From Candidatus Doudnabacteria bacterium (GTDB lineage: Bacteria; Patescibacteriota; Doudnabacteria; UBA920), in NCBI GenBank assembly GCA_963837465.1, contig CAWINB010000004.1, positions 266,853 to 330,852 on the forward strand: a stretch of DNA of 64,000 nt, given 5' to 3'. A program made the position numbers and the translations under genes. The notes under the pieces were generated by a model. It was not told the origin of the DNA. It did no database searches and worked only from the letters and a program-made list of their open reading frames with translations. Positions 28,860-49,380 of this stretch are shown piece by piece (positions within the stretch are counted from its first letter, which is position 1; the number at the start of each line of letters is the position of its first letter).

Positions 28860-29025
28860 AAGAAACAGTCCAAAAAGTTCATTTCGGCTGTAATCCCATA
28901 ATTTCGGCTGTTTGTCATAAAAATTTTTTCCGCTTAGCTCTCTGGCTAAACATCAAAAATTCTTTATGCCAATCGTCACGTAATTCTGGAATTCCATCAC
29001 GAAAGCGACTTTCCGCGCTGTTTCT
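28860..29025. repeat. 166-bp MITE-like intergenic repeat, copy 1, with 7-8 bp terminal inverted repeats (agaaacag...ctgtttct)
   Basis: About 95% identical to 49215-49380. The element starts agaaacag and ends ctgtttct. Confidence 0.7.
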
Positions 29026-29079
29026 AAAACCAGCGGTGATATCCCACCTTTTATTAAGAGGGAAATTAACTTTACAACA

Positions 29080-29682
29080 ATGCCCAAAAAGGAAAAAACC
29101 TCATTTTTTGGAAAAATTATGGGCGGTAACGTAACCGAAGACAATATGAGCCAAAATGTAACTGTTTCACAATATCAAAGCGAACCCCTGGAAGCCGAAG
29201 AGCTTGCTCCGGATGATGTCGTGGAAGACCAGGAATTGGAAATGGAAGAAGAGCAACAGCGGGAAGTTCCGGTAAGGCAGCCTGTTAAAGAACCCCAGGC
29301 TAACGGTAATGGCAACGGCAACGGCAACAACGAGGAATGGCTAAACGATTTTGAAGGCCAGCTTAATATAGACATGTACCAGACCAAGGACAATGTCATT
29401 ATTAAATCCACTATTGCCGGCGTGCGCCCCGAAGACATAGATATTACGGTGGCCAACGATATGGTGACAATAAAAGGCAGCCGCAAGAAAGAAGAAAACA
29501 TCGCCCAGGATGACTACTTTTACCAGGAATGCTACTGGGGCAATTTCTCCCGCTCGGTAATAATCCCCGTAGACATAGACAGCGAACAAATTGAGGCGGA
29601 TTTAAAAGATGGAATCTTAACCGTAATTATTCCCAAGGCGGCTAAGGCGAAGACGAAGAAGGTTAAGGTTAAGGGAATGTAA
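29080..29682 (+). CDS. Hsp20/alpha-crystallin family small heat-shock protein with acidic N-terminal extension
   Basis: The C-terminal 100 aa form an alpha-crystallin domain (...VRPEDIDITVANDMVTIKG..ADLKDGILTVIIPK). An NGNGNGNGN linker is present. Confidence 0.8.
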   Translation: MPKKEKTSFFGKIMGGNVTEDNMSQNVTVSQYQSEPLEAEELAPDDVVEDQELEMEEEQQREVPVRQPVKEPQANGNGNGNGNNEEWLNDFEGQLNIDMYQTKDNVIIKSTIAGVRPEDIDITVANDMVTIKGSRKKEENIAQDDYFYQECYWGNFSRSVIIPVDIDSEQIEADLKDGILTVIIPKAAKAKTKKVKVKGM

Positions 29683-29744
29683 TAGCTGGACGGAATACAC
29701 GGATAGGGCACAGAGGACACGGAAAAAAACGAAAATTTAGAGAA

Positions 29745-29774
29745 AACCCCGCTCGTTACGGAGCGGGGTTTTAT
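29745..29774 (+). terminator. Rho-independent terminator after the Hsp20 gene
   Basis: aaccccgctcgttacggagcggggtt followed by ttat. Confidence 0.7.
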
Positions 29775-29786
29775 GATGGGTATTAT

Positions 29787-30029
29787 CTATTTAGCCAGTA
29801 CAAAATTTTTTTGGAGCGGATGGGGTAATTTTGCAAAAACCAACTTCTTTGCCTGGCTTAAAAATTTACTGGCTTCCAGAAGTTCGGTGAGAACAGGATT
29901 ATTTTTTTTATCAAAATGTACTATTAAATTACCCATTTCCTGAGCATATTCAATAGGCTGCTTACCGGTTTCCCACATAAGCACGTCAGCTTCGGGTTCG
30001 TATGAAATTTTAATTTTTTGCTTCTTCAT
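29787..30029 (-). CDS. DUF2283-like small protein (putative antitoxin partner)
   Basis: KISYEPEADVLMWE matches the DUF2283 pattern. The ATGA overlap with the upstream ORF indicates translational coupling. Confidence 0.5.
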   Translation of the reverse strand: MKKQKIKISYEPEADVLMWETGKQPIEYAQEMGNLIVHFDKKNNPVLTELLEASKFLSQAKKLVFAKLPHPLQKNFVLAK

Positions 30030-30274
30030 AAATATTGTTTCGCGCGGCCCGGATAAAATGTAATAACTTTAAAATTTCCAGCCTCTCGTTTATATACTAC
30101 CCGTAAAACATGAGTTTTGTCAATTTTTCTCTGGGCGATAAATAAAGGCAGTCTGGATAAATCACGAGAATCCGGATTTATAACGGTACGCGCTACCTGC
30201 AGTTTGGAAACTAAAAATTTATGGCGTTTTAAGATATTGAATTTTTCAGTCGCGTGTTTGGTAAAAACAATCAT
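30026..30274 (-). CDS. DUF4258-like small protein (putative toxin partner)
   Basis: 82 aa, overlapping stop/start with the DUF2283-like ORF. This pairing is recurrently reported as a two-gene module. Confidence 0.5.
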   Translation of the reverse strand: MIVFTKHATEKFNILKRHKFLVSKLQVARTVINPDSRDLSRLPLFIAQRKIDKTHVLRVVYKREAGNFKVITFYPGRAKQYL

Positions 30275-30405
30275 ACTCTAATTTTAACACAAAAAAAATG
30301 CCCTGTACCATCCATCCTCGCGGATTTTGGTACAGGGCGAGACTTTCGCTTACGGTTAACATCGGGGCTTTGGCGTCGGTAAAACTGTGATTTGGATTTA
30401 TTCAG

Positions 30406-31002
30406 CTAAAACCACTTACCAGTACTTTCAGAGTATAGGTTAAAGTTTTCATCCAGCTCGAGTCCGTAGCCGCTGAAGTCGTAGCCGTCTTCCGTTTTCC
30501 AAAGTTTGAGCCACGACTGGCCACGATACAGGAATTGCATGTCAATCAGTTTGATATTGCCGTCTTTTACAAATCGCATTAGCGCATCATGGAATAACGC
30601 GCCGACATCGCCTTTCCTTAGAGTAATCTGGCTACCAAGCGGGAAATCGGGGATTCTTCTCGCTTCAGACCAACAACCATCACTCCAAGAATTGGCTCTG
30701 AGGCTGTTTTCTTTTTGAGAGGTGTAAGCAGTATATCTGATAGAGCAAGGAGAAAATCCTATTTCTTCCAATCCGCTCCCCCTGTTGGTAAAGATCACCT
30801 TGCGGTAATAAGTTGGTTCGTGGTGCTCTGGTCGAAAAAGAAGTCGAAGAGTGGTGTGCCCGAACTTAATTGTTGGGTTGTCGATGAATTCTCGCTTTGA
30901 GTTCCACCACTCATTTAGGTAATAAATAATAGCTTGTGGCCATTCATTGGACGGAAATCGTCGCGAACCTGCTACTACGATGGAAAGACCCGGTTTATTC
31001 AT
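30406..31002 (-). CDS. Hypothetical protein
   Basis: 198-aa ORF, Trp/Arg-rich, no recognised motif. Confidence 0.45.
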   Translation of the reverse strand: MNKPGLSIVVAGSRRFPSNEWPQAIIYYLNEWWNSKREFIDNPTIKFGHTTLRLLFRPEHHEPTYYRKVIFTNRGSGLEEIGFSPCSIRYTAYTSQKENSLRANSWSDGCWSEARRIPDFPLGSQITLRKGDVGALFHDALMRFVKDGNIKLIDMQFLYRGQSWLKLWKTEDGYDFSGYGLELDENFNLYSESTGKWF

Positions 31003-31150
31003 ATTTCCTCCTAGTCTGTTAGAGTATCATTTACTTTTATCATTTATGTCAATTTTGTATGACCAGATTTATTAAAGCTTAGATTGGTGCTTTTAAAAAA
31101 AGGCTATTTATGTTAAAATTTAGTTGTCAGAATTATATGACATATAAAAT

Positions 31151-31912
31151 ATGGAAGAAGAACTGCAAAAATTGGGCTTAAATGAGCATGAGGCCAGGGT
31201 TTATTTGGCAGCTTTGGGTTTGGGGGCTTGTTCGGCCGGGCAGATAGCCGAGCAAACAGGCATAAAACGGCCAACGGTTTATTTGGCTTTGGAAAATTTA
31301 AGCAAACAGGGATTAATGTCGGAAAGTTTTGCCGGAAAGAAAAGGTTGTTTGAGGCGGAGAAACCGCAGAAATTGGAGAAGTTGACCAAGCGGATGCGGC
31401 GGCAGGTTGTGGACGCGGAAATTTTATTGGAAAGTATTTTGCCGGGACTTATTAACCTGCCAAAACAATACGCCGAGGAGCCAAAAGTAAGTTTTTATTC
31501 CGGGATTGAAGGCTTAAAAAATATCGCCCTGGAAATATCCGCCTGTAAGTCTTCCTGGTATTTTTTTGGCTCCGGCGCGAAAATTTTGGAAAAATTAATT
31601 AAGTCCAAACGAATGGATGTTTTGCATGATTCTTGGGCTTTGCGCAACAGCCCCAACCGTCCGAAAATTTACATAATTACCGACAACGGAGTTTTTGCTT
31701 TGGGGAAAGAATGGGAACAAACAAAAACCCCTTGGCGGGAGATGAAAATTTTGCCCGGTATTATTAATGTTGGTTCTGGCTTTATCATCTACGAAGATAA
31801 ACTGGCTGTGTTGAGCCTAGAAAATAAACCTTTTGTAGCAGTAATAAAAAGTAAGGAAGTTGTGGAAGTGGTTAAGGTTATGTACCAGTTGATTTGGAAA
31901 AGCCTGGTATAA
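31151..31912 (+). CDS. TrmB-family HTH transcriptional regulator (second copy)
   Basis: LNEHEARVYLAALGLGACSAGQIAEQTGIKRPTVYLALENL, same domain layout as the 2110-2853 gene. Confidence 0.65.
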   Translation: MEEELQKLGLNEHEARVYLAALGLGACSAGQIAEQTGIKRPTVYLALENLSKQGLMSESFAGKKRLFEAEKPQKLEKLTKRMRRQVVDAEILLESILPGLINLPKQYAEEPKVSFYSGIEGLKNIALEISACKSSWYFFGSGAKILEKLIKSKRMDVLHDSWALRNSPNRPKIYIITDNGVFALGKEWEQTKTPWREMKILPGIINVGSGFIIYEDKLAVLSLENKPFVAVIKSKEVVEVVKVMYQLIWKSLV

Positions 31913-31950
31913 TATTTGACTTTGTTTGTTGATGCGTCTAAAGTATTAGT

Positions 31951-32163
31951 ATGACACAGGCGATTATTACAAAAATCGACAAAGGTTCGGTGGCTTTGCC
32001 CAAGGCTTGGAAAGGCAGCAAGGTATTTTTGCGTGTCACAGGCGACCGGGCGACTATTACCAGACTGAATAATTCAAAAGCGATTTTTTCCGCCGATGAA
32101 GTAAAAGACTTGCGGAAACTGGGAAATAAAGTTAGCGAGTCGGTACTTAAAAAATTCTTGTAG
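31951..32163 (+). CDS. Small putative antitoxin (AbrB/SpoVT-like swapped-hairpin candidate)
   Basis: 70 aa, 8 nt upstream of the PIN-domain gene. Confidence 0.4.
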   Translation: MTQAIITKIDKGSVALPKAWKGSKVFLRVTGDRATITRLNNSKAIFSADEVKDLRKLGNKVSESVLKKFL

Positions 32164-32170
32164 ACGTAAT

Positions 32171-32599
32171 TTGTTTATGAAAGTTGTGGCTGACACGAAC
32201 GTAGTTGTTTCAATGCTGCTTTGGGGTAAATCCTTAGAGCGGCTTTTTGTTATGGTTAATAACAGGAAGATAATTTTGTGTTTTTCCCCTGCTACGGTTG
32301 ACGAGCTGTTTCGGGTTATCCATTATCCAAAAATAATCAGGCAGGCTGACAAGTTGGCGGTTCCTGTTGAAGCCCTGGTTGACAAGCTGCTTACCTTTTC
32401 TTTTATATGTCATCCGAAGACAAAAATTACAAAAATATCCGAAGACGAAAGCGATAACAGAATATTGGAAACTGCCTTAACGTCCAATGCCTACTGTATT
32501 ATTTCCGGTGATGGTCACTTATTGCAGCTAAGAAATTATAAAGATATCCCTATTTATTTACCCGCCCAATTTTTACGATTGGTTTCTTATGGTGCATAA
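32171..32599 (+). CDS. PIN-domain protein (putative VapC-like toxin)
   Basis: N-terminal VVADTNVVVS, and later ...TALTSNAYCIISGDGHL, giving the acidic residues of a PIN fold. Confidence 0.6.
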   Translation: MFMKVVADTNVVVSMLLWGKSLERLFVMVNNRKIILCFSPATVDELFRVIHYPKIIRQADKLAVPVEALVDKLLTFSFICHPKTKITKISEDESDNRILETALTSNAYCIISGDGHLLQLRNYKDIPIYLPAQFLRLVSYGA

Positions 32600-32720
32600 G
32601 TTATTTTAGACAGCCTTAGGTTTTGGCTAAGGAAAATGCCAGTTTTAACTTAAGTAAAAAAAATGCTAAAATGAGGAAGACTTTTATCTAGCGGAAATAA
32701 ACTGCATTTTCAAAACCAAT

Positions 32721-34977
32721 ATGGCTAAGCGGAAAAAAATACAGGATAAAGAAGGCAGAAAAAAAACCAAACCTGCTCTTAATCTTTCGTACGAGACCAA
32801 GCGCGGGATTATGGTGGTGGTGTTCGTGGTTTTGGCGCTGGTTGCGGTTTTAAGCATCGCCGGGGTTGCGGGGAGTTTGGGCCAGGAGATGCTATGGGGA
32901 TTGTCGCTGGTGTTTGGGCTTATGACTTACGTGGTCCCCTTGATTTTGCTCAGCGTGGCTGTGTCCATATATAAGCAGGATTTGGAAAGACAGGGCCGCG
33001 GCCACAATTTTTACTGGCGCATTTATTTGGGCGCCCTGATTTTGGCAGGCAGTATTGCCGGTTTAGTTCACATTTTTTATTTAAACAGCCAAACCGACGC
33101 GTTTGCCCTAGCCGCCCAGGGAAGAGGCGGCGGCTATTTGGGGGCGGTTTTTTCGTCCCTGCTTTATGTCCACTTGGGTTTTTGGGCCGGTTGTTTGATT
33201 TTATTGGCTTTGGTTTTAATAGGTATGCTGGTGACGTTTGATGTGCCGCTTGGGTCGTTGTGGCCGAAGTCGGAAGAGAAAGAAAATATAGAAGACAGAA
33301 TAAAGAAGACAGAAGACAGTGAATCGGTGGCGGATGTTAAGCTCGCGCCGTTAAAAATCAATGCCATGGGCAAAGAGGGTTTTATTGAGGAAAAGGTTAT
33401 GGATAAAAATCCCAAACTCGCGGATAATAACCTTAAAGAAGATGTTAAATTAAAAACCCAGACCATCCAAACCAAAGCCATCAACACTCCCAAAAACCAG
33501 GCGGTGCAATTGGAGGCTATGACCGTGGAAGACCGCAAAGACTGGAAACTGCCTAATTTTGATATTTTAGACGATAATCATACCGAAGTGGACAGCGGCA
33601 ACATAGAAGTCAACGTGGCCATAATTAAAAAAACCCTGTCCGACTTTGGCATAGAAGTGGAAATGGGCGAGGTTAACGTTGGGCCGACTGTTACGCAATA
33701 CACCCTGCGTCCCGCTACCGGCGTAAAATTGTCGCAAATCGCCGGCCTGCAAAATGATCTGGCCCTGGCTTTGGCCGCTTCCAGCCTGCGTATGGAACTG
33801 CCCATTCCGGGCAAGGCTTTAGTCGGCATAGAAGTCCCGAATAAATCCACGGCCATTGTCCGTTTGCGGGAAGTTATGCAGACCGAAGGTTTTGTTAGCC
33901 ATAAAAGCAAACTGGCCCTGGCTTTGGGCCGCGATGTGGCCGGACATGCTATGGTGGTGGATTTGGCTAAAATGCCGCATTTGCTTATTGCCGGCGCCAC
34001 GGGCACGGGTAAAAGCGTAGCCATTAACAGCCTGTTTATTTCTTTGCTTTACCGCAATACGCCACAGGATGTAAAGTTTATAGTCATTGATCCAAAGCGG
34101 GTGGAAATGACTCCTTACAACGGCATCCCGCATTTGCTGACACCGGTTGTCATTGACCACGAAAAAGCCGTTAACGCGCTAAAGTGGGCGGTGGCCGAAA
34201 TGGACAGGCGCTACAAACTTTTATCCGAAGCCGGCAAGCGCAATATTTCGGAATATAACGAGCACGCGCCCCTGCCAATGCCTTATATCGTGATTTTGGT
34301 GGATGAGCTGGCGGATTTGATGGCCGTGGCTCAAGCCGATGTGGAAGCCACAATCGTACGCTTGTCGCAAATGGCGCTGCGCCATAGGCATCCATTTGGT
34401 TTTAGCCACCCAGCGGCCGTCGGTTGAGATTATCACCGGGCTGATTAAAGCCAACATTACTTCGCGCGTAGCATTTGCCGTGGCTTCGCAAATAGACAGC
34501 CGTACCATTTTGGATTCCTCGGGAGCGGAAAAATTGCTGGGCAACGGCGACATGCTGTATACATCCGCTGAATTTAACAAACCCAAGCGCGTGCAGGGCG
34601 CCTACATTGGCGAAAAGGAAGTTAAAAAAGTGGTGGATTTTTTTAAGGCGCAAACCGGAGCTGTTATTTACAACGAGGAAATTGTGGAAAAACCCAAAAG
34701 GCCCTTGGGTATTCCGGGTATGGAAAGCGAAGACGGCGGCGATAATGACCCGCTTTTGGCGGAAGCCACGGAGGAAGTCAAACGGGCCGGCAAAGCGTCA
34801 GCCTCTTTACTGCAAAGACGTCTGCGCGTAGGCTACGCCCGGGCCGCCCGACTGTTGGATATTATGGAACAAAAAGGCATAATCGGTCCCGGCGAAGGCG
34901 CCAAGCCGCGGGAAGTTTACGGCGTGATTCCGCCGGATGAAAAAGCGGAGTACGGGATAGAAGAGGGGATGCGGTAA
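32721..34977 (+). CDS. ftsK: DNA translocase FtsK/SpoIIIE, split by an apparent frameshift near 34375-34395
   Basis: N-terminal transmembrane helices, Walker A AGATGTGKS, Walker B ILVDELADL. Frame 3 stops at 34427 after RLSQMA. Frame 1 continues with GIHLVLATQRPSVEIITGLIKANI and the C-terminal gamma domain. Confidence 0.8.
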
Positions 34978-35045
34978 TTTCAAATTTCAAATATCAAAAC
35001 AAAAGCCGGCCGACCCAATATCAAAATTAAGGCATCGCGTCCGCA

Positions 35046-35086
35046 TTTGTAATTTTCCGCCGGAGGTGGTTCCGCCTTTGGCGGAG
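35046..35086. repeat. GGATCC-family palindrome, copy c (degenerate, centre ggttcc)
   Basis: ttttCCGCCGGAGGTGGTTCCGCCTTTGGCGGag, flanked by inverted atttcaaat/atttgaaat motifs. Confidence 0.65.
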
Positions 35087-35110
35087 ATATTTGTAATTTG
35101 AAATTTTGTC

Positions 35111-36067
35111 ATGATTTTTGAAAAGAAGAAAATAAGAATCGAAACCTTAAGCGAATATTTGGCCGAAGCCAGGCGCGATTTAAACCTGAGCCTTGAACAA
35201 GTCGCCCAAAAAACATCCATTAAGCCGGAATTTTTAAATGCCCTGGAAAGCGGCCAGTTTAAAATTTTGCCAGCCGATGTTTATGTATTCGGCTTTTTAA
35301 GTCGGCTGGCGGAAATTTACTCCGCCAACTCCAGGGAACTGATTGCCCAGTATCAAAAAGAAAAAGGCATCCAGCGGCAGATTGGGAAGATTGATAGCCC
35401 GATCGGGTTGCCGTGGTATAAAAAATACTTCGGACGAATAGTGGTCACGCCCAAGCTCGTAACCTTGTTTTTAGGCCTGGCCTTCGTGGCTTTGACAGTG
35501 GTTTATATTGTTTGGCAGGTTTTTTCCATCAACAAGACGCCGAACCTGAAAATATTTTCCCCGGCCAATAACAGCGTTATCCAGGGTTCCTCTCTGCGGA
35601 TTTCCGGCCAGACAGACTCCGGAATGACCGTATCCATAAACGGGGAAAAGATTTTTGTGGATAATCAGGGCAATTTTCAAACTCCGGTCAGCCTGACCCC
35701 GGGACCCAAGACTATTACTGTCACGGCCGAAAATCATTTTGGCAAATCTACCAGCCAAACTTTGAACGTCACAGGGGCGGAAACTGCCGCGACAAACACC
35801 GTATTCAGTTTAAAAGTTGATTTTACCGGACCGGTGACTTTAAACGTCGCGGCAGACGGCCAGCCTGGCCAAACCTTGAATTTTGGCAAAGGCGGGAGCG
35901 AAACTTTTACCGCCAGCCAGGAAATACTTCTTTCCACTTCGGATGCCGGAGCCACTATAATTACTTTAAACGGACAATCTTTGGGAGCTATGGGCAAGTC
36001 CGGGGAAAAATTAACCAATATTGCTTTTTCGCCCCAGTATAACCCCCCATCCGTCGGCCATAAATAA
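35111..36067 (+). CDS. RodZ-like protein (N-terminal XRE HTH, one TM, C-terminal beta-rich domain)
   Basis: The HTH LSLEQVAQKTSIKPEFLNALESG, a single transmembrane helix, then a Thr/Gly-rich C-terminal domain. Confidence 0.6.
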   Translation: MIFEKKKIRIETLSEYLAEARRDLNLSLEQVAQKTSIKPEFLNALESGQFKILPADVYVFGFLSRLAEIYSANSRELIAQYQKEKGIQRQIGKIDSPIGLPWYKKYFGRIVVTPKLVTLFLGLAFVALTVVYIVWQVFSINKTPNLKIFSPANNSVIQGSSLRISGQTDSGMTVSINGEKIFVDNQGNFQTPVSLTPGPKTITVTAENHFGKSTSQTLNVTGAETAATNTVFSLKVDFTGPVTLNVAADGQPGQTLNFGKGGSETFTASQEILLSTSDAGATIITLNGQSLGAMGKSGEKLTNIAFSPQYNPPSVGHK

Positions 36068-37294: not shown

Positions 37295-37305
37295 TTTTGT
37301 ATTTG

Positions 37306-39187: not shown

Positions 39188-41563
39188 ATGGAACAATCAG
39201 ATAAAATTTACTGCAGTTTGGATATTGAGACTTCGGGATTTGATCCAAAGACTTGCGAGGTTTTGGAGGTGGGGTTTGTATTTTTTGAAATCGGTGACAG
39301 CGGCGTAAAGATTGTTGAAGAGTGGACCCAGGTTTTTAAGCCAAGCCAGCCGGTGACCGCGCAAATTTTGGGTTTGACGGGCATTAGCCAGAAAGAATTG
39401 GATGAGGCGCCGCCTTTTTCCGGGTTTCGTGAATTTTTGCGGGAAAAATTTGGGAGTGCCGTAATTTTGGGCCATAATGTGGTCTTTGACATAAAGTTTT
39501 TGGAAGGCTTTGGCATAAAATTTTCCGGGGAAATTATAGACACCCTTGACTTGGTACAGTGGATTTTGCCGACGCATCATAGCTACAACCTGGAAAATTT
39601 GATGCATACTTTCGGCATCAGCCACAAAGAAGCCCACAGGGCTTTGGCCGACAGCCGGGCTACGCTCAAGCTTTTGGAAAAACTGCTCCAGATCTACCGC
39701 GGTTTTCCGGAGATGTTGAAGCGGCAAATTCAAAAATTGATTGAGCCTCATAATTTTTCCTGGCAGAGCTTGCTTGCCGTAAGTCTGCCGCCTGTATCGT
39801 TTGAGGAATTTTCAGAAGATGAACCGGTAAAAAAAATAAAAAGTTCAGAAAATACAAAAATCGGTTTTAACTTTGAAGCTAAGGAAATCCTCAACTTTCC
39901 ATTGGGTCAAAATTATGTTGGGTTTTTGGCCCAGGCTTTAAAAAAAATATCAGGCGCCGCCCTGTTGGTTGTCCCCAAGCCGCAGGAAGTTTTAAACCTG
40001 TATCGCCAGGGGTTGGTTGATCATCCCGTGTTTTTGCCGGAGTCCAGTTTTGACGGGGAAAAATTCAGCCGTTTGCTAAAAAAGCCGTCGCTGTCTCCGG
40101 AAGAAGTAAAATTTATCCTGAAGATTCTGGTCTGGAAAAGAACCAACTGGCAGAGCCAAAGCCTGCTGGATCTGAATCTGTCGTTTTTCGGCGGCCAGTT
40201 TAAAAGTTTGATTTCCGGCGGAAAACTTGTTGAACAAAACACCAAAGGACTCTTGGCCTGCGACCAGACAACCTTTTTGGAACTTTCCGCCCGGGGTTTA
40301 TATTCCCAACGCCAGGTGGTGGTCTGCGGGCTGAATGAATTTGAATCTGCCATAACGGCTAATATCGGCACTAAAATCAGCTGGGGTTATATTAATTATC
40401 TTCTCAGGTCTTTTTATAATTTTGAACTTGAACTGGGAGAAGAAAAATATAAAACTCCGGCGCGGGAAGCTTTGGCCGCGGGCGACTTGTTTTTTGGTTT
40501 GGTTAACGCTCTGCTGCAATCCGACCCGCCGGGATTTGTTTATTATAAAATTTCCCGGCAGAGCGAAAGTGAAGACAGTTACCAAAAAATAAAAGGCGCG
40601 GCCGAAAATTACGCCTCCAAGTTGTCCCGCGCGAACGAAATTTTCCAATCGGACCAGGTAGCCGCGTTCTCCGCCAGCTTGCCGGACTTTTTTAAACTTG
40701 AAGCCAACCGAGTTAAATGGATTGAAATTTCCCCAAACCGCTGCGCTTTTTTAAGCCAGCCGCTGGATATAACGGAAATAGTCCAAAAGGTTTTAATGCC
40801 TTTTCCAAATCTTGGTTTCGCCGATTGTTTGGATAGTAAAGTTTTGCCGGAATTTTTTTCCTGGCGGCTTGGGTTGGGGGATTTTAAATTCAGGCAATTT
40901 TTGCCGCAAGCAATTAAGACAGGCGTCAGCCCCAAGTCCGCGCGGGGGGATTTGTTTAACGGTGTAAAAAGCCCGCATGTCGGCAGCGGCAGAAAAATTA
41001 ATTATCATTGTCTGGCCAAGCCTCCCCAGCTTTCCGAACTGGCTGAACTTGCAGACAAAAAGGACGCTTTGCCGGCCGCTATTTTATTTGCCGGCCCGCT
41101 CCAGGTACGGGAATTTTACGACCAAAACTATCAGGCTTTAAAAACCACCGCCACTGTGCTGGCCCAGAATAATTCCGGCGGCAGCAATAAAATTTTCCGC
41201 AACTTTTCCATCCGCCAAAACAGCCTTTTATTATGCACCGACAAATTCGTTTTAAAACATTTGACTTCGGCAAATTCCCTGGCTCCGGTAAGCCATCTTA
41301 AGGTAAAAACCCTGGTCTTGTGTCGTTTGCCGTTTGACCAGTTCACGCACCCTTACCAGGAAGCCCTGGGCCAAACCTTGTCCAATGCTTTTGAAGACTA
41401 CTCGCTGCCAAAAGCTTTGTATAATTTCCACAGCCTGTTAAAGTTTTTTTACACCCCGGAACTTAAGGATATTTACATAATTGACGCGAAACTGGCAAAA
41501 CCTTACGCTAAAATTTTTAAAGATTACTTCCAAACCATCCCTAATGCGGTATTTAAGGAGTAA
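39188..41563 (+). CDS. DnaQ-like (DEDDh) 3'-5' exonuclease domain fused to an uncharacterized C-terminal region of about 600 aa
   Basis: The N-terminal 170 aa carry Exo I SLDIETSG, Exo II HNVVFD and Exo III HRALAD motifs. No Walker A or DEAH motif was seen in the remainder. Confidence 0.6.
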   Translation: MEQSDKIYCSLDIETSGFDPKTCEVLEVGFVFFEIGDSGVKIVEEWTQVFKPSQPVTAQILGLTGISQKELDEAPPFSGFREFLREKFGSAVILGHNVVFDIKFLEGFGIKFSGEIIDTLDLVQWILPTHHSYNLENLMHTFGISHKEAHRALADSRATLKLLEKLLQIYRGFPEMLKRQIQKLIEPHNFSWQSLLAVSLPPVSFEEFSEDEPVKKIKSSENTKIGFNFEAKEILNFPLGQNYVGFLAQALKKISGAALLVVPKPQEVLNLYRQGLVDHPVFLPESSFDGEKFSRLLKKPSLSPEEVKFILKILVWKRTNWQSQSLLDLNLSFFGGQFKSLISGGKLVEQNTKGLLACDQTTFLELSARGLYSQRQVVVCGLNEFESAITANIGTKISWGYINYLLRSFYNFELELGEEKYKTPAREALAAGDLFFGLVNALLQSDPPGFVYYKISRQSESEDSYQKIKGAAENYASKLSRANEIFQSDQVAAFSASLPDFFKLEANRVKWIEISPNRCAFLSQPLDITEIVQKVLMPFPNLGFADCLDSKVLPEFFSWRLGLGDFKFRQFLPQAIKTGVSPKSARGDLFNGVKSPHVGSGRKINYHCLAKPPQLSELAELADKKDALPAAILFAGPLQVREFYDQNYQALKTTATVLAQNNSGGSNKIFRNFSIRQNSLLLCTDKFVLKHLTSANSLAPVSHLKVKTLVLCRLPFDQFTHPYQEALGQTLSNAFEDYSLPKALYNFHSLLKFFYTPELKDIYIIDAKLAKPYAKIFKDYFQTIPNAVFKE

Positions 41564-42039
41564 TCCATAAAGTATCCCGTGACAACATGCAAAACCCTGT
41601 TTTACTAAAGTTTTGATGGCTTTCTTGCTACAAAGGTATAGTCCCCAAGTTATCCACACATTATCCTAAGCCTTAAAAATGTTAATTTAGCATGTTTAGC
41701 GCTAATAAATGCTTTAAATAAGCAGAATTGATACTAAAAAGCCTTCTCTTATTGACAAATCAATATAAGCCTGATATTATAAATGTATAGTTAATTTGTG
41801 GGTAACTTTGGAAACCAAAAGTTCTTTAACAATTTTTACAGTCAATATCAAACTGGACAAAGGAAAATGGCTTTTAAAAGGTTAAAAGCGTTTTTCCTTT
41901 AAACTTCTCGTCAAAGCCTGTCCAATCCAGGCTGTTTGAAAAACAAAAACAAAAATATGCAGGTCAGATGTTCTTACCGAACAACTGGCAAATTATATTC
42001 CAAAATAGGATATAATTATTGTTAAGGTCCATAAAACGA

Positions 42040-42240
42040 CCAGAAGAGAAGTTTGAAGTGCAGTTTGAAATCAGATTGGAATTCAGACGCTCTCCCGTAT
42101 CTTACGATCGGGAAGGCCGGAATTCGACAGAGTGTTGCCTGCTACTCAAGGTTTAGGGTCTAAATAGTTTAGGTCTTAAATCTTGAGTGGCACGTAGCCG
42201 ATCGAAACCCGGTTACAGGCCCCTCCGCAACCTATTTTTT
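42040..42240 (+). ncRNA. Candidate structured RNA of unknown class in a 765-bp gene-free interval
   Basis: Nested complementary segments: gatcgg/ccgatc and actcaag/cttgagt. A GGAAUUCGACAGAG box resembles the tmRNA 5' consensus, but no matching 3' T-arm was found. Confidence 0.2.
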
Positions 42241-42328
42241 TAAATAACGTTGGCCCGATGGGGCCTTTTACTATTGTATAAAAAATTTAAATCATATATA
42301 ATAAATCTATCTTAATTAAGACCATTTT

Positions 42329-42634
42329 ATGCCAACACAACAATTTATAGAACAAATGAAGCAAAAGTTGCTGGATCACCAAAAAAAACTGCTCGGTGAT
42401 TTGGCCCGCCTAAACCCCAATGAACATTTAGGGGAAGATTTGGACTCCAACGCCCAGGAGGTGGAAGACAACGAAGTCAGCCAGGATATAATCGCCCGCG
42501 TAGAGGCGGATTTAGCAAAAATAGAAAAGGCCCTAGCCAAAATTCAGAACGGCACATACGGCACCGACGACGAAGGCAGGGAAATTCCCCAGGACAGGCT
42601 GAATGTTTTGCCGTGGGCTGATAAATCCATATAA
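42329..42634 (+). CDS. DksA/TraR-like protein lacking the Cys4 zinc finger
   Basis: Coiled-coil N-terminus with acidic tip residues, then a C-terminal TYGTDDEGREIPQDRLNVLPWA. No cysteines. Confidence 0.45.
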   Translation: MPTQQFIEQMKQKLLDHQKKLLGDLARLNPNEHLGEDLDSNAQEVEDNEVSQDIIARVEADLAKIEKALAKIQNGTYGTDDEGREIPQDRLNVLPWADKSI

Positions 42635-42657
42635 AATCAAGGTTTAATTTTTACAAA

Positions 42658-43095: not shown

Positions 43096-43170
43096 AAAAA
43101 TGACAAAAATAGGCTGCGGTTAATATTTGCTCACTTTTGTCATTCTTGTCATTTTTGCTCATTTCTTTTT

Positions 43171-44676
43171 ATGATTTCAAAAGTTTTTAGCGCCGCGGTT
43201 TTAGGCCTGGACGCGGAGTTGATAGAAGTAGAGGCCGACGTGACCAACGGGCTTCCCGCCACGGTTATAGTGGGTCTCCCGGATACCGCCGTGCAGGAAA
43301 GCCGTGAACGTGTTAAGGCCGCGATTAAAAATTCCGGCTGCAGCTATCCGCCCACGCGCGTCAGCGTTAACCTGGCACCGGCCGACGTGCCCAAACTCGG
43401 CACCCATTTTGATTTGCCCATTGCTTTATGCGTGCTTATGGCATCTGAGCAGTTGGACTGTATAAATACCGGCAAGATATTTTTGGGAGAGCTTTCGCTG
43501 GACGGGCAACTGCGTGCCGTGCCCGGAGTTTTGGCCGTTGCGATAACGGCAAAGCGGCTCGGAATTAAGGAACTTTTTGTCCCCAAGTCCAATGCCAAAG
43601 AAGCGGCTTTGGTCGGGGGGATAAAAATTTATCCGGTGGACAACTTAAAGCAGCTGCTCGGGCATTTGATGGGACTTGAACTTTTGCCGATAGAGCCGGA
43701 AGCTCAGCCGCAAAAGATTTTAAAAAATTTTCAGGCGGCGCTGGATATGAAAGATGTCGCCGGACAGGAATTGGCTAAGCGGGCCTTGGAAATAGCGGCT
43801 TCAGGCTCGCATAATATCCTGCTTTCCGGACCCCCGGGGTCGGGAAAGACTTTACTTGCCCGGGCGTTGTCCGGAATTTTGCCGGACCTGTCTTTGGACG
43901 AAGCGTTGGAGCTGACAAAAATTTACAGCATTGGCGGCAAACTCCAGGGGAGTTTTATTTCCAGCCGGCCGGTACGCAGTCCGCACCATACCACTTCCAA
44001 TGTAGCCTTGGTTGGAGGAGGCGCCAATCCCAAACCCGGAGAAATAACTTTAGCCCACCGCGGTGTTTTATTTTTGGACGAATTTCCGGAATTTCCGCGT
44101 AACGTTTTAGAAGCTTTGCGCCAGCCTTTGGAAGACGGGGTGGTCACGGTCTCGCGGGCCAGCGGCACTTTTACTTTTCCGGCCAAATTTACTTTGGTGG
44201 CGGCGCAGAATCCGTGCCCGTGCGGTTATTTGGGAGATGCGGCAAAAAAATGCGTCTGCGGCCCGGGACAGATTTTTAAATACCAGAAAAAAATTTCCGG
44301 CCCCCTGCTGGACAGAATAGATCTTCACGTGGAAGTGCCGCGCCTGCCTTATGAAAAAATGGCGGATGCCACGGCGGCTGAAAAATCTGATGGCATAAAA
44401 AAAAGAGTGGAGCATGCCCGGGAAGTTCAGCGCCTGCGTTTTGGTAAAAGCAAAACCAACAGCGAAATGAATTTAGTGGAAATAAAACAATACTGCAAAC
44501 TGGGAGATGCCGAGCAGGAAATGCTAAAACAAGCCATGAAAACCTACAACTTTTCCGGCCGCTCCCTCCACCGCATCCTAAAAGTCTCCCGCACCATAGC
44601 CGACCTGGCCTCCGCCGAAACCATCACCACCCAACACCTGGCCGAAGCCATAATGTATAGGCCGAAAAGTGAATAA
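43171..44676 (+). CDS. YifB/ComM-family Mg-chelatase-like AAA+ ATPase
   Basis: N-terminal Lon-like domain, Walker A GPPGSGKT, Walker B LFLDEF, and the Cys cluster CPCGYLGDAAKKCVC. Confidence 0.85.
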   Translation: MISKVFSAAVLGLDAELIEVEADVTNGLPATVIVGLPDTAVQESRERVKAAIKNSGCSYPPTRVSVNLAPADVPKLGTHFDLPIALCVLMASEQLDCINTGKIFLGELSLDGQLRAVPGVLAVAITAKRLGIKELFVPKSNAKEAALVGGIKIYPVDNLKQLLGHLMGLELLPIEPEAQPQKILKNFQAALDMKDVAGQELAKRALEIAASGSHNILLSGPPGSGKTLLARALSGILPDLSLDEALELTKIYSIGGKLQGSFISSRPVRSPHHTTSNVALVGGGANPKPGEITLAHRGVLFLDEFPEFPRNVLEALRQPLEDGVVTVSRASGTFTFPAKFTLVAAQNPCPCGYLGDAAKKCVCGPGQIFKYQKKISGPLLDRIDLHVEVPRLPYEKMADATAAEKSDGIKKRVEHAREVQRLRFGKSKTNSEMNLVEIKQYCKLGDAEQEMLKQAMKTYNFSGRSLHRILKVSRTIADLASAETITTQHLAEAIMYRPKSE

Positions 44677-44686
44677 GTATCAATTT

Positions 44687-44718
44687 AAAACAGTCCTTAT
44701 TAATAAGGACTGTTTTAA
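44687..44718 (+). terminator. Rho-independent terminator
   Basis: aaaacagtccttatt/aataaggactgtttt. Confidence 0.7.
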
Positions 44719-44769
44719 ACAATTTCTGCCTGGTTATTTTTACATCCTGCCAAAGGCGAAGTTTTATAT

Positions 44770-45102
44770 ATGAGCACGCTGGGGCTTTCCCAGGAAGTTT
44801 TTAAAAAAACTTTCAGAAAAATGGATATGATTCCACTGTCGGAAAATTACCATATGCGTGAATTGGTGGATGAAAGTCCGGAAGGCAGGGCTTACGCGGA
44901 AAAAGTAAAAAATAATTTCAGGCAGGTAAAGCTGATTCCCAAAACATTTTTGCCCTTTGAAGTGGATATTGGGATTTTTGCCGATAAAGTATTAATAACT
45001 TCTTTAAAAAAAGAATATTTTACTGTCAGTATTGAAAGCGCGGAAATCAGCCGGGCGTTTAGGCAGTTGTTTGAGGCGATGTGGCAACTATCTCTCAATT
45101 AA
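44770..45102 (+). CDS. Hypothetical protein
   Basis: 110-aa ORF. Confidence 0.4.
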   Translation: MSTLGLSQEVFKKTFRKMDMIPLSENYHMRELVDESPEGRAYAEKVKNNFRQVKLIPKTFLPFEVDIGIFADKVLITSLKKEYFTVSIESAEISRAFRQLFEAMWQLSLN

Positions 45103-45125
45103 GTGTCAAGGGTGACCCTTGACAC
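45103..45125. repeat. Palindrome gtgtcaagggtgacccttgacac (copy 1), terminator-like with a T-run
   Basis: Perfect 23-nt palindrome. An identical copy lies at 50730-50752. Confidence 0.65.
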
Positions 45126-45191
45126 TGCTGTTTTGTAAAGCCATATTCCGGTTTGCAGGTAAAAATAATGGTTTTGTAGTATAATATAGTT

Positions 45192-46088
45192 ATGCAAAAA
45201 ATCAAAAAAGCAATTATTCCGGCGGCGGGGTTTGGGACAAGGTTTTTGCCGGCCACCAAGGCTATGCCTAAGGAGATGTTGCCTATTGTAGATAAGCCGA
45301 TTATCCAGTATGTGGTGGAAGACGCGGTGAGCGCGGGGATTGAAGATATAATTATAGTCACCGGCTGGCACAAACGAACCATTGAAGACCATTTTGACTA
45401 TCCTTTTGAATTGGAAAAAAGACTGCTTGAGGCGGGCAAAAACGAACAAGCGGAACAAGTCCGCAAAATCGCGGAAATGGCGAATTTTTATTACGTAAGG
45501 CAAAAAGGGCCGTTGGGCAATGCCACGCCGATTTGGAACGCGCGCAAATTTATCGCAGACGAACCTTTTTTGGTTTTGTGGGGCGATGATTTTATAGACG
45601 CCAACCCCAGCCGTTCCCAACAGCTGGCAGACGCTTACACAAAATTAGGCGGCAGCGCGGTTTTAGGCAGCATTAGAATGGACGGCGAGGAAGACTATAA
45701 GCGCTATGGCTACGCGGCGGGAAAAGAAAAAGAGGCGGGCATTTTAAAAATAGAGCAAATTATTGAAAAACCGGGCGTTGGTATGATAAACTCGGACTAT
45801 GCCGTGGTCTCCGGCGCGGTTTACAGCCCGGAAATATTTGAGGCCATAGAAGAGAGTATGCGCCGCTTGGAAAATAGCAGCATGCCCCATGAACTGGTTT
45901 ACGTGGATGCCATAAATATTTTATTGGAACAAAAAAAAGATTGCTACGCCGTGGAAATTAAAAACGGCAAGTACTATGACACAGGCAACAAGCTGGAGTA
46001 CCTAAAAGCCGTGGTGGAGTTCGGTTTGAAGCATGACGAGCTGAAAGAGGAGTTTGGAGAATATTTGAGGCATTTGAATCAGGAATAA
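45192..46088 (+). CDS. galU: UTP--glucose-1-phosphate uridylyltransferase
   Basis: KAIIPAAGFGTRFLPATKAMPKEMLPIVDKP is the canonical GalU N-terminus. Confidence 0.85.
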   Translation: MQKIKKAIIPAAGFGTRFLPATKAMPKEMLPIVDKPIIQYVVEDAVSAGIEDIIIVTGWHKRTIEDHFDYPFELEKRLLEAGKNEQAEQVRKIAEMANFYYVRQKGPLGNATPIWNARKFIADEPFLVLWGDDFIDANPSRSQQLADAYTKLGGSAVLGSIRMDGEEDYKRYGYAAGKEKEAGILKIEQIIEKPGVGMINSDYAVVSGAVYSPEIFEAIEESMRRLENSSMPHELVYVDAINILLEQKKDCYAVEIKNGKYYDTGNKLEYLKAVVEFGLKHDELKEEFGEYLRHLNQE

Positions 46089-46157
46089 TGAATTATGAGT
46101 TACGGGGAACTTAATGCCCCCTAATTCATAATTCCAAATTTATAATTCGTAAAATAC

Positions 46158-47462
46158 ATGAAACCAAAAATAAAAAATAAATATACAAAAATCGTCGCGG
46201 CGCTAATATCTGTCAGCCTTCTGTCCGCCGGTTGCGGCGGCGGTTCGTCCGGCGCGGGCAGCAGCCGCGTGGTGCTTAATTTTTGGGATCCTTTTGAAAG
46301 CAGCCAGGATTTACAGCCGTTGATTGCCCAGTACGAACAAAAACATCCCAACGTACAGGTTGTTTACACGCAGAAGGATATTACCACTTATCCAGATGAC
46401 CTTATAAACGCGCTGGCTTCCGGCAGCGGACCGGATATTTTTGCCATCAACAACAACTGGCTGCCGCAGTACCTCAACAAAGTTACGCCGGCTCCCAGCA
46501 ACATTATTTCCTATACCGACTACAAGACCGCTTTTGTGGACGCGGCGGTAAACGATTTTACGCTCAACCAGCAGGTTTACGGAGTGCCTTTGTACGTAGA
46601 TTCCCTGGGACTTTATTATAATAAAGATATTTTAGGCAGCGCCGGTATTGCCGTGCCGCCGCAAACCTGGGACCAGCTTTCCGCGGATGCGCAAAAAATC
46701 AAACGCGCCGACAGTACCGGCTACTTTACCTTGAGCGGTTTGGCCGCCGGCACCAACGACAACGTCAACCGCGCCGTGGACATTTTATATTTGTTGATGC
46801 TGCAACAGGGAGCGGTGCCTTATACTGCCGACGGCACCCAGCCGACTTTTGCCAACACCGTACAGCAGAACGGACAGAGCGCCAACCCGGGACTGACTGC
46901 CTTAAATTTTTATACCTCTTTTGCCAATCCTTACAGCCAAAATTATAACTGGAACGCGCGCAGCGATTACTCCATAGATGCGTTCGCCAACGGCCGCGCC
47001 GCCTTTTTGTACAGCTATTCCTATACCGCTGCCACCATCAAACAAAAAAATCCCAACTTAAATTTTGACGTCGCTCCCGTGCCGCAGCCAAATTTAAACC
47101 AGCCGGCGGTTAATTTTGCCAATTACTGGGGCGAGGTGGTAAGCAAGCAGAGCAAAAACAGCGCCTGGGCCTGGGATTTTTTGAATTTTTTGACCAGCAA
47201 AGCCTCTCTGGACAAATATTACGCCAGCGACAAAGAACCTTCTTCCCGCAATGACCTTATAGCTTTGCAGATCCAGGATCCGGACATTGGCGTTTTTGCC
47301 AACGCCAACTTAACGGCCAAGACTTTTTACAAACCAGACCAGGTAAAAATAGACGACATCTTCGGGGAAATGATAGACAACATCATCTTAAAAGGCATGA
47401 CCTCCCAGCAGGCCCTGACCCAGGCGCAGGAGGAGGCGCAGACGGTGAACGCGGGGCAGTAA
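46158..47462 (+). CDS. ABC transporter substrate-binding lipoprotein (family 1 SBP, sugar-type)
   Basis: Lipobox LLSAGC followed by a Gly/Ser linker. The VVLNFWDPFES..YEQKHPNV pattern is typical of a family 1 SBP. Confidence 0.7.
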   Translation: MKPKIKNKYTKIVAALISVSLLSAGCGGGSSGAGSSRVVLNFWDPFESSQDLQPLIAQYEQKHPNVQVVYTQKDITTYPDDLINALASGSGPDIFAINNNWLPQYLNKVTPAPSNIISYTDYKTAFVDAAVNDFTLNQQVYGVPLYVDSLGLYYNKDILGSAGIAVPPQTWDQLSADAQKIKRADSTGYFTLSGLAAGTNDNVNRAVDILYLLMLQQGAVPYTADGTQPTFANTVQQNGQSANPGLTALNFYTSFANPYSQNYNWNARSDYSIDAFANGRAAFLYSYSYTAATIKQKNPNLNFDVAPVPQPNLNQPAVNFANYWGEVVSKQSKNSAWAWDFLNFLTSKASLDKYYASDKEPSSRNDLIALQIQDPDIGVFANANLTAKTFYKPDQVKIDDIFGEMIDNIILKGMTSQQALTQAQEEAQTVNAGQ

Positions 47463-47465
47463 GAA

Positions 47466-47675
47466 AATTATTCTAATTAACCTAATTGTTCTAAGTACTC
47501 TAAATAATGTCCAATGTCGAAAGTCCCAGTGGCCGAAAATTTGATCTTGAATTTAATTTTCAATAAAATATACCAAAAAGTAACTAATAAAGACAGCCAC
47601 GACTAGACATTTGGCATTGGACATTGGTGCTTTTTAGGGCACTTAGAACAATTAGGATAATTAGAAATTTAGCAC
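47466..47675. repeat. Long imperfect inverted repeat (about 26-bp arms, roughly 150-bp spacer) upstream of the secreted-protein array
   Basis: ttctaattaacctaattgttctaagt ... acttagaacaattaggataattagaa, with inner aatgtccaatgtc/gacattggacatt pairs. Confidence 0.5.
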
Positions 47676-47708
47676 AAAAAGGTATATAATGAGGTTGTAT
47701 TTATCCAA

Positions 47709-48173
47709 ATGAAACAAAAATTACTGCTAGTTTTAATTATTTTTGGTTTTATAACCGTACCTCTTTTAGTCTCGGCCCACGGGCTGGTTCCCTGCGGCGG
47801 GATTAACGAGAACCCCTGCACGGTTACGGATATTTTTGTTCTGATTGCCAGGGCCACCAACTGGCTTATTGCCGTGGCCGGGTTGTATGCGGTTTACCAG
47901 ATAATCAATCAGGGTTTTTATCTCATAATTTCCGTGGGCAATGAGGAAGCTATTACGGCAAGAAAAAATGCTTTAACCAATGTTGTTATTGGTTTTGTGC
48001 TTATATTATTTGCCTACATGTTTGTTAATACTGTAGTCAATGTTTTATTGACCAGAAGTTTGACCCCTGCCAATCATCCTGAATGCAAACTGGACTTAAC
48101 CAACCCTTTAAATTACCTGACCATAAACCAGAATCCATGCACCAACCTGCCCGATACGGGATTGCACCAATAA
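47709..48173 (+). CDS. Small secreted protein, paralog 1 of the GNEE..EKGK double-TM (pilin-like) family
   Basis: Signal peptide MKQKLLLVLIIFGF..SAHG, conserved C-terminal module ISVGNEEAITARKNALTNVVIGFVLILFAY, and a Cys-containing tail. Confidence 0.6.
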   Translation: MKQKLLLVLIIFGFITVPLLVSAHGLVPCGGINENPCTVTDIFVLIARATNWLIAVAGLYAVYQIINQGFYLIISVGNEEAITARKNALTNVVIGFVLILFAYMFVNTVVNVLLTRSLTPANHPECKLDLTNPLNYLTINQNPCTNLPDTGLHQ

Positions 48174-48186
48174 AATAAAAAATAAA

Positions 48187-48609
48187 ATGAAACAAAATTT
48201 TAAAAAAATATTTTTGTTTGCCGGAATGGCGGTTTTTAATGTTTTAATTTTAAGCGCGTTGCCTTTTAGCGCGGGCGCGACGTTTAACTGCACGACTTAC
48301 CAAAACCAATTTACCCTAAGCACTACTACCAGTGGCACGGTCGTAAACATCTCAACCGGCTATCCCGTCTACTGCTCGGCCGGCGACTTGGCGGTGCAGG
48401 TTATTAATTACCTTTCGGCTATATCCGGGACGGTGGTAATAATATTTTTAATCATTGGCGGGTTTTTGTATGTAACTTCCGCCGGCAACGAGGAGCAGTC
48501 GGAAAAAGCCAGGAAGATCATAACCAATTCCATTATTGGCCTGGTGGTAATTATTTTGGCCTTTACGATAGTAAAAGTGGTTTCGAGTTTGCTGACGCTT
48601 GGGCATTAA
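48187..48609 (+). CDS. Small secreted protein, paralog 2
   Basis: MKQ signal peptide, C-terminal IIGGFLYVTSAGNEEQSEKARKIITNSIIGLVVIILAFTIV. Confidence 0.6.
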   Translation: MKQNFKKIFLFAGMAVFNVLILSALPFSAGATFNCTTYQNQFTLSTTTSGTVVNISTGYPVYCSAGDLAVQVINYLSAISGTVVIIFLIIGGFLYVTSAGNEEQSEKARKIITNSIIGLVVIILAFTIVKVVSSLLTLGH

Positions 48610-48805
48610 CCCGCAGTACATTCGCGTTGGCATCCCATAAACGGGCCAACTGCGGTTGTTGTTTTTCCATCAAAATTTTCCGATTAACCCGATTCTCAGG
48701 CTGTTCTGATTTTTAAGGCGATATTTTTTGATTCTTATATTTTATGCTATAATTACAGCAACTAAATTTTAGTATCACTACTAAACTTGGAAGGGGGTGA
48801 ACAGA

Positions 48806-49210
48806 TTGAAACAAATAATGCAAAAAATAAATTTTCTTAAAGCGGCGGAAGTTATTTTGGCTGTTTTGCTGGTGTTCGCCCCGTTTTTGGTAACCGCCCA
48901 GTTTAGCCCAAGCAACAACCAGGCTCTTTGCAACGGCACCGGTCTTAATTGTCAGTCTACCAGTGTTAACGGCCTCATCCAAACCGTAATAGACTGGCTT
49001 TTGGGGATAGCTTTTGCTCTTGCCGTGCTGTTTTTGATAATCGGCGGCTTTTGGTACATCACTTCCGCCGGTAACGAAGAAACCGCGGAAAAAGGTAAAA
49101 GTACGGCCATTAACGCTATTATTGGTATTGTAATAATTATTTTGTCTTACGTTATTATTAACGTAATCTCCAACCTTGTCGCCAGCCCCAACTCTACCAC
49201 CGCGCCGTAA
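48806..49210 (+). CDS. Small secreted protein, paralog 3
   Basis: TTG start giving MKQIMQ with the SD ggaagggggtga. C-terminal IIGGFWYITSAGNEETAEKGKSTAINAIIGIVIIILSYVI. Confidence 0.6.
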   Translation: MKQIMQKINFLKAAEVILAVLLVFAPFLVTAQFSPSNNQALCNGTGLNCQSTSVNGLIQTVIDWLLGIAFALAVLFLIIGGFWYITSAGNEETAEKGKSTAINAIIGIVIIILSYVIINVISNLVASPNSTTAP

Positions 49211-49214
49211 AGAT

Positions 49215-49380
49215 AAGAAACATTCCAAAAAGTCCATTTCGGCTGTAATCCCATAATTTCGGCTGTTTGTCATAAAAATTTTTTCCGCTTAGCTCTCTGG
49301 CTAAACATCAAAAATTCTTTATGCCAATCGTCACGTAATTCTGGAATTCCATCACGAAAGCGACTTTTCGTACCGTTTCT
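49215..49380. repeat. 166-bp MITE-like intergenic repeat, copy 2
   Basis: About 95% identical to 28860-29025, in the same orientation. Confidence 0.7.

Follow-up and report, generated by a model that had tools for sequence, protein, structure and literature searches.

Miniature inverted-repeat transposable elements (MITEs) of bacteria are recognised by a core enclosed in terminal inverted repeats, by direct repeats on the flanks, by the lack of a transposase and by a length that is mostly below 200 bp (Delihas 2011, PMC3184786). At the RNA level they form a long stem-loop, and they are frequently co-transcribed in ways that affect mRNA stability (PMC3184786). Correia/nemis of Neisseria, ERIC of enterobacteria, RUP of S. 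pneumoniae, Chunjie of Geobacter and Nezha of cyanobacteria (PMC3184786) serve here as the comparison set for a repeat found in a 64-kb stretch of the genome of a Candidatus Doudnabacteria bacterium (contig CAWINB010000004.1, positions 266,853 to 330,852; the whole stretch is called the window, and positions are counted within it). Three copies of this repeat, A (28860-29025), B (49215-49380) and C (1869-2030), probably form one family of non-coding, MITE-like elements of ~165 nt, each an imperfect palindrome over its whole length, in a Candidate Phyla Radiation (CPR) genome of ~868 kb. The sequence is new; its kind, the class of small palindromic or MITE-like repeats, is already known. Genomes of the CPR/Patescibacteria are tiny and streamlined, and few writings deal with their non-coding repeats; a targeted full-text literature search turned up no account of MITEs or of palindromic repeats for this group.

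Like the bacterial MITEs, the element is shorter than 200 bp, has no transposase gene, carries terminal inverted repeats, lies between genes and is patchily distributed among relatives; the whole of it makes one long stable stem-loop, and it sits in spacers that are probably transcribed. It departs from them in that no sequence similarity is detectable, a target-site duplication accompanies one copy of three, the termini are not conserved between the A/B and C subfamilies, and no parent insertion sequence (IS) is known. The closest resemblance is to bcr1 of the Bacillus cereus group (~155 bp; PMC3184786), which shares its size, the 5-bp direct repeat (at copy C), the lack of a known transposase, a distribution not conserved among relatives and compensatory changes that keep the RNA structure (PMC3184786). 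However, bcr1 consists of two hairpins and has been shown to be transcribed, whereas the present element is a single hairpin whose transcription is presumed. Correia elements, for their part, are inserted by genes and co-transcribed, and their hairpin can be bound or cleaved by RNase III with altered expression of the adjacent gene (PMC2649163). The present element might work as Correia and ERIC do, and a gene for RNase III lies in the window at 53835-54530. Correia ends can create promoters, whereas no promoter-like site was found in A or B, and the TA duplication typical of Correia is not seen either.

Two further classes of palindrome deserve comparison. Repetitive extragenic palindromic (REP) sequences and REPINs are, like this element, extragenic hairpin-forming palindromes built from inverted copies of a shorter motif. 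REPs measure about 20-35 nt and are G+C-rich, REPINs measure about 100 nt, and they are mobilised by RAYT transposases; assignment to this class was rejected for an element of 165 nt and 37% G+C in a window whose proteins include no RAYT/Y1-transposase domain. REP-type singlets were also considered and set aside, the 11-nt motif of the element not being enriched outside its copies in the window spacers. Rickettsia palindromic elements (RPEs) are known for in-frame insertion into protein-coding genes, and in this the present element differs, all three copies being intergenic, although C may give an alternative ATG. What is shared with the RPEs (105-146 bp; PMC3184786) is a palindrome of similar size in a small, reduced, host-dependent genome.

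Copies A and B are the most closely related members. A repeat search of the window returned them as a single two-copy family of 166 nt at 96% identity (160/166 positions; blastn E 1e-60), in agreement with the preliminary description of this DNA, and pairwise alignment shows the similarity stopping abruptly at both edges, beyond which the flanks are unrelated. Copy A lies between a glycosyltransferase gene of MGDG-synthase-like type (end 28715) and an Hsp20 gene, and ends 54 nt before the Hsp20 ATG at 29080; copy B separates two paralogues of the T4SS_pilin family (PF18895), its first base lying 4 nt past the stop codon of pilin paralogue 3 and its last 115 nt short of the ATG (49496) of pilin paralogue 4. 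The earlier placement of both copies 55-115 nt upstream of + strand genes therefore stands, while the copies themselves have no assigned strand. Copy A runs from AAGAAACAG to CTGTTTCT at its termini and copy B from AAGAAACAT to CCGTTTCTT, and in B the terminal inverted repeat may extend to 49381. An inverted repeat of 7-8 bp, as first described, is indeed present at the ends, but it understates a palindrome that, however imperfect, runs the whole length of the element. The duplicated internal motif is real as well: ATTTCGGCTGT, of which the cagccgaaat originally noted is the reverse complement, occurs twice on the + strand of each copy at 20-nt spacing, near the end of the element (28881-28911 in A, 49236-49266 in B). 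All six mismatches between A and B fall in the outer 33 nt, leaving an inner 133 nt that are identical (P about 6e-5 under uniform mutation), and because these 133 nt are identical A and B are recent copies. An independent trace of the repeat comes from the Logan assembly of run ERR10755945, which includes the same organism (99.97% identity): one contig begins at 49338 in the window, and the first base to differ between A and B follows exactly 30 nt (k-1) later, which fits a repeat because an assembly graph with k = 31 breaks at such a point.

Copy C, likewise without an assigned strand, has a TrmB-like gene (2110-2901, -) on one side and a ComF-like phosphoribosyltransferase gene (1344-1889, -) on the other. 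A search of the element against the window aligned it to A/B at 64% identity over a local match of 133-139 nt, or about 59% over the full length (blastn E 1.6e-9). It has the A/B length class (162-167 nt across the family) and the single-hairpin architecture, and its termini, GGGCCTGTTGCCAAATG and CATTTGGCAACAGGCCC, are perfect inverted repeats over 17 nt. Its subterminal direct repeat ATTTTGGT, at 1888 and 1908, is the counterpart of ATTTCGGCTGT, and the alignment shows ATTTYGG repeats at 20-nt spacing and an apical stem-loop common to C and A/B. On either side of C the sequence reads ATCAG (1864-1868 on the left, 2031-2035 on the right), a candidate target-site duplication. The orientation of C relative to A is weakly determined, with 101 matches against 98. 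Because copy C exists elsewhere, at an unrelated locus, the family is not the mere pair of copies that the preliminary description would have taken for a simple segmental duplication; an unfiltered covariance-model scan of the 64-kb window found no fourth member. The ends of C (GGGGCCTG..GCCAAATG, with the 5-bp duplication) may resemble the inverted repeats of the Tn3 family; the GGGG ends are missing from A/B. As to the neighbouring gene, the longest open reading frame (ORF) of the ComF-like protein starts at an ATG (1887-1889) inside the left arm of C (MTFGNRPLIDG...), and two more in-frame ATGs follow just beyond the element. The end of C lies 13-22 nt upstream of the likely start of this gene, and the insertion may have added an upstream in-frame ATG and hence an alternative N-terminus.

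RNA folding turns each copy into one imperfect hairpin over its entire length, with a stem of 62-65 bp, and a covariance model built from the three copies scores them at 169-192 bits in an unfiltered run (A 189, B 192, C 169.5), the next match in the window reaching 16 bits. Copy A folds at -44.1 kcal/mol on the + strand (z -4.3 against shuffles) and at -61.5 kcal/mol on the - strand (z -5.5), and copy C at -57.6 and -65.1 kcal/mol (z -7.1 and -7.3). At the apex stands the stem-loop GCTTAGC-loop-GCTAAAC (28932-28951 in A), which is kept in C with one compensatory pair; its helix of 7 pairs (helix 2) is 100% paired across the copies. In the three-way alignment 95% of the cells are standard pairs, and 19 of the 64 stem pairs have changed on both sides between A/B and C and yet remain paired, against 6.5 +/- 2.2 in shuffled controls and 0-4 with slid partners. 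The interruptions of the upper stem fall at matching positions in A and C. The palindrome was therefore already imperfect in the ancestor of the copies, and its hairpin has persisted through their divergence. These pairs do not tell whether the structure so kept is one of RNA or of single-stranded or cruciform DNA.

Orthologous loci in relatives were compared with those of the window, whose RecA has its closest named homologues in Candidatus Doudnabacteria. The comparison set consisted of the RecA-locus syntenic regions of six related Candidatus Doudnabacteria genomes (L007, L011, L012-14, L015/16, L017 and L018), which are ~70-73% identical to the window in alignable DNA; it offers empty-site data for A from five relatives and for B from one, and no relative's locus for C. 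The spacer between the glycosyltransferase and Hsp20 genes measures 104-155 nt in L011, L012, L015/16, L017 and L018, against 364 nt in the window, and copy A is missing from the site in all five, the corresponding site of L007 being a scaffold gap. Copy B is missing from the 104-nt spacer between pilins 3 and 4 in L007, although the two small hairpins found just after B in the window are retained there. A covariance-model search of ~154 kb of the relatives' syntenic DNA found no family member. In light of these empty orthologous sites, A and B are lineage-specific insertions. The gap in L007 is one of 100 N (L007 5800-5899) in the Hsp20 5' untranslated region (UTR), at a position comparable to that of copy A and with TTAAC on both sides, and it may hide an unassembled repeat with a 5-bp duplication.

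The case for a MITE-like repeat thus combines at least three members in 64 kb, terminal inverted repeats, no coding capacity, empty sites and one copy with a 5-bp flanking direct repeat. The inverted repeats enclose a core in A (AAGAAACAG / CTGTTTCT) and are perfect over 17 nt in C; the length is 162-167 nt with no transposase ORF; filled sites stand against empty orthologous ones for A in five relatives and for B in one, at ~72% DNA identity; and the three copies, all in intergenic DNA, occupy unrelated loci within 64 kb of a ~868-kb genome. Such a repeat would be mobile but non-autonomous, depending for its spread to new sites on a transposase whose gene lies elsewhere, and the 5-bp duplication at C would point to a cut-and-paste or copy-in enzyme of the DDE type. 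Insertions would be tolerated solely in spacers. The copies would be co-transcribed with neighbouring genes, and the mRNA copy could form a long, imperfect double-stranded hairpin that alters mRNA stability or processing, for example through cleavage by the RNase III encoded in the window, as in Correia/nemis, ERIC and bcr1. Any regulatory effect would then be a by-product of insertion and not the reason for the element.

Several observations sit uneasily with this interpretation. Of the target-site duplications that it leads one to expect, ATCAG at C is the one candidate; at the boundary of A and B, as defined by their identity, none is clean (GCTAA|...|AAAAC at A, AGATA|...|TTGAT at B), and because the relatives are only ~70-73% identical the exact insertion points cannot be mapped. 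A single transposase is expected to need conserved ends, yet it is the subterminal and apical parts that A/B and C have in common, their termini differing in sequence, and the six differences between A and B are all at the ends, the very part that a transposase should conserve. Only three copies were seen in the 64-kb window, no transposase is encoded there, and no parent IS was found. Co-transcription and an effect on expression are, moreover, presumed from sequence rather than observed. The end-clustered differences, the variable termini and the want of a clean duplication at A and B consequently keep two alternatives alive, an RNA module and, as the weaker of the two, conversion between copies.

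The position of the copies relative to promoters bears on all of these readings. It had been suggested that the element may supply promoter sequence, and for A this is not borne out. A promoter-like site for Hsp20, TTGACG-N17-TAATAT (28793-28821, +), lies 38 nt upstream of A and outside the element; it is conserved in seven genomes, five of which lack the element and a sixth of which (L007) has the scaffold gap. In the relatives this site stands ~60 nt before the ATG, and in the window copy A is interposed. Because the conserved promoter lies upstream of it, A sits inside the Hsp20 5' UTR and is not the source of that promoter. Promoter prediction found no promoter-like site within A or B, and in C a single weak match of 9/12. 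Upstream of C are a terminator-like hairpin and an extended -10-like sequence, TGTTATAAT, on the minus strand at ~2056-2064, and copy B is intercistronic. Since the copies sit between promoter and start codon (A, and probably C) or between cistrons (B), they are presumably co-transcribed with their neighbours. In the predicted fold of the Hsp20 leader the element forms a hairpin of its own and leaves the ribosome-binding region unpaired with it. An RNA-thermometer-like occlusion of the Hsp20 start was considered and rejected on that ground, the hairpin folding apart from the region concerned. A role as intrinsic terminator was likewise rejected, as there is no terminator-like site at A, B or C and no run of T after the hairpin on either strand.

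Coding capacity and membership in known families were also addressed. As first stated, the element encodes no conserved ORF. Every frame is interrupted or without homologue, and when the six frames of A and C were joined into one query, a search of 5.8e9 proteins yielded no homologue (4058 candidates, none of them scoring). The one tidy open frame, a 31-aa tail on the minus strand (SRFRDGIPELRDDWHKEFLMFSQRAKRKKFL followed by a stop), has no Pfam match and no homologue in the same proteins, and its interpretation as the remnant of a gene 3' end was ruled out. No Rfam 15 family matches the element, tRNAs alone reaching the gathering threshold in the window; in E-value mode the best scores, 22 bits where the thresholds are 54-230, went to models of plant miRNA precursors. 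Phage, plasmid and viral-contig collections held no match to the element (four patterns for the viral contigs), and its termini were not found elsewhere in the window, in the fetched loci of relatives or in viral contigs. A search for ATTTCGGCTGT-N9-ATTTCGGCTGT in genome and metagenome contigs, among which the source genome is not included, retrieved unrelated 20-nt tandem repeats alone (L001-L005).

The alternative that fares best is a structured RNA module whose hairpin is itself selected and acts as RNA, be it the product of a small RNA gene or a cis-regulatory leader that is mobile. This is conceivable, though on balance unlikely. Possible roles for such a module would be as a target of RNase III or an RNA-binding protein, or as an element at the 5' end that stabilises or attenuates the transcripts of the Hsp20, pilin and ComF-like genes. 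The 19 compensatory pairs and the shared positions of the upper-stem bulges between A/B and C speak for it, but a palindromic mobile element gives the same apparent covariation if it needs the hairpin for its own propagation. The pattern of conservation, with an apical stem-loop and subterminal motifs that are kept, termini that are free to vary and an inner 133 nt that are identical between A and B, also suits an RNA whose working parts lie within, as do the location of all three copies in likely transcribed spacers and the independent folding of the hairpin in the predicted Hsp20 5' UTR; the hairpin nonetheless leaves the Hsp20 ribosome-binding region unsequestered. The minus strand of the window folds better in every copy and carries more G-U pairs (7/6/3 vs 4/2/0), but this excess, 16 vs 6 over two independent lineages, is not significant, and the better-folding strand is antisense to the neighbouring genes at A and B and sense at C. 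Further, the element has no promoter or terminator of its own, and Rfam offers no match beyond weak, generic miRNA-type hairpins far under threshold. The family is also absent from the orthologous sites and from ~154 kb of relatives' DNA, and therefore is not a conserved regulator of these genes.

A more specific form of this idea takes the ~165-nt module to be mobile and selected for its structure, a portable post-transcriptional switch that would act through an RNA-binding protein or RNase III. It is a speculative proposition and a rather improbable one. The switch would be an imperfect double-stranded RNA with a conserved apex, two conserved internal-loop motifs per arm at 20-nt spacing, and a base that varies freely. 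If the proposition were true, the module would, wherever it landed, place an RNA switch on the gene downstream, on Hsp20, on a pilin and on a ComF-like competence gene in a bacterium with very few classical regulators.

Doubtful, too, is a one-off segmental duplication or gene conversion between the A and B spacers with no mobility involved and with C as an unrelated lookalike. Such an event would account for the finding of only two near-identical copies, neither with an evident target-site duplication, and an identical 133-nt core with diverged edges does resemble a conversion tract. Copy C, however, aligns to A/B over its full length with the same motif positions, 20-nt repeat, apex and length (E 1.6e-9). 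The duplicated segment also coincides exactly with a self-contained palindrome that has inverted termini, which is not expected of a random duplication; the flanks of A and B share nothing; and in relatives neither the A site nor the B site is occupied.

It is highly improbable that the element is a protein-binding DNA site, whether an operator or iteron array for a TrmB-type regulator or a recombination site. On that view the two 11-nt direct repeats of each arm, two helical turns apart, would be the binding sites. The exact 20-nt spacing of the ATTTYGGYT repeats in A, B and C invites the idea, as do the TrmB-family genes that adjoin C (2110-2901) and lie 2 kb from A (31151-31912), but no TrmB gene is near B. 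A 64-bp palindrome is, moreover, far longer than known operators, the motif does not occur above chance as isolated sites in other window spacers, and the relatives keep the genes and the promoter without the element. Finally, there is almost no prospect that A and B are the attL and attR of an integrated 20-kb island, or remnants of gene 3' ends: direct repeats do bracket 20 kb, and the minus strand does have a 31-codon open tail ending in a stop, but the tail peptide is without homologue in 5.8e9 proteins or Pfam and the interior consists of syntenic core housekeeping genes with no integrase, because of which A and B bound no island.

The 20 kb between A and B encode Hsp20, FtsK, RecA, LspA, ComM, a sugar-nucleotide transferase (nucleotidyltransferase), a solute-binding protein and pilins; the gene order of this interval matches that of the six relatives, and no integrase is found in it. 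Two irregularities within the syntenic block were seen in passing. FtsK is split in the window into overlapping ORFs at 32721-34427 and 34339-34977, the second with the gamma domain, where the relatives have one ORF of 742-761 aa; the split could reflect a frameshift or a pseudogene, or come from an error in sequencing. Variable slots of the block (29787-30274 and 32171-32599 in the window, 4200-4665 in L011, 11026-11696 in L012) hold toxin-antitoxin-type pairs that differ from genome to genome, with DUF2283 plus a partner and a PIN protein in the window, HicAB in L011, PemK in L012 and PIN in L018.

The MITE-like repeat is not the only small element of its sort in this DNA. A second, unrelated hairpin element of 196 nt occupies 47471-47666, with inverted arms of ~55 nt and a fold of -75.6 kcal/mol (z -8.8); it sits between the solute-binding-protein gene and pilin paralogue 1, where L007 has 28 nt. 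Elements with the same ends, AATTATTCTAATTRACCTAATT..., and cores that differ in sequence and size are found in the window (47471-47666), in L012 (17058-17178) and in L018 (17579-17822), the latter two between lspA and comM, and they constitute a textbook MITE family shared across three Doudnabacteria species. Given this second MITE family in the genome and its relatives, small non-autonomous elements appear to be active in the Doudnabacteria lineage. The 64-kb window accordingly holds at least two unrelated hairpin-forming insertion families. Such elements break short-read assemblies, reshape 5' UTRs such as that of Hsp20 and are usable as strain markers; if the hairpin of the first family also acts as RNA, it would exemplify how transposition can spread regulatory sequence through a reduced genome.

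Other non-coding features of the window are of a different nature. Within a gene-free stretch (41563-42329), a region of ~420 nt (41751-42172) is conserved in six relatives at 68-80% identity, roughly the value of coding DNA, which it exceeds in the closest relative (L018). It contains a conserved TTGACA-N17-TATGAT promoter of its own, a terminal hairpin and several helices with compensatory changes (18 of 92 predicted pairs). Its longest ORFs do not exceed 45 aa, Rfam gave no match at E <= 1, and no tmRNA was called. The region, which precedes a 101-aa gene and lspA, is a candidate for a structured RNA not yet described. Elsewhere, the segment at ~12390-18530 is likely a small integrative element: between tRNA-Ala(GGC) and tRNA-Pro(CGG) it encodes, both on the minus strand, a large serine recombinase at 12433-13929 and, at 14353-16149, a primase-polymerase/AAA_25 protein. 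A second tRNA-Ala gene (8830-8903) forms an inverted pair with tRNA-Ala(GGC). A G+C-rich perfect palindrome, TTTTCCGCCGGAGGCGGATCCGCCTCCGGCGGAAA, recurs four times in spacers (8907-8966, 12336-12395, 35047-35106 and 62621-62680) and has the look of a bidirectional terminator; within one of these copies a Logan contig of the same organism is broken off.

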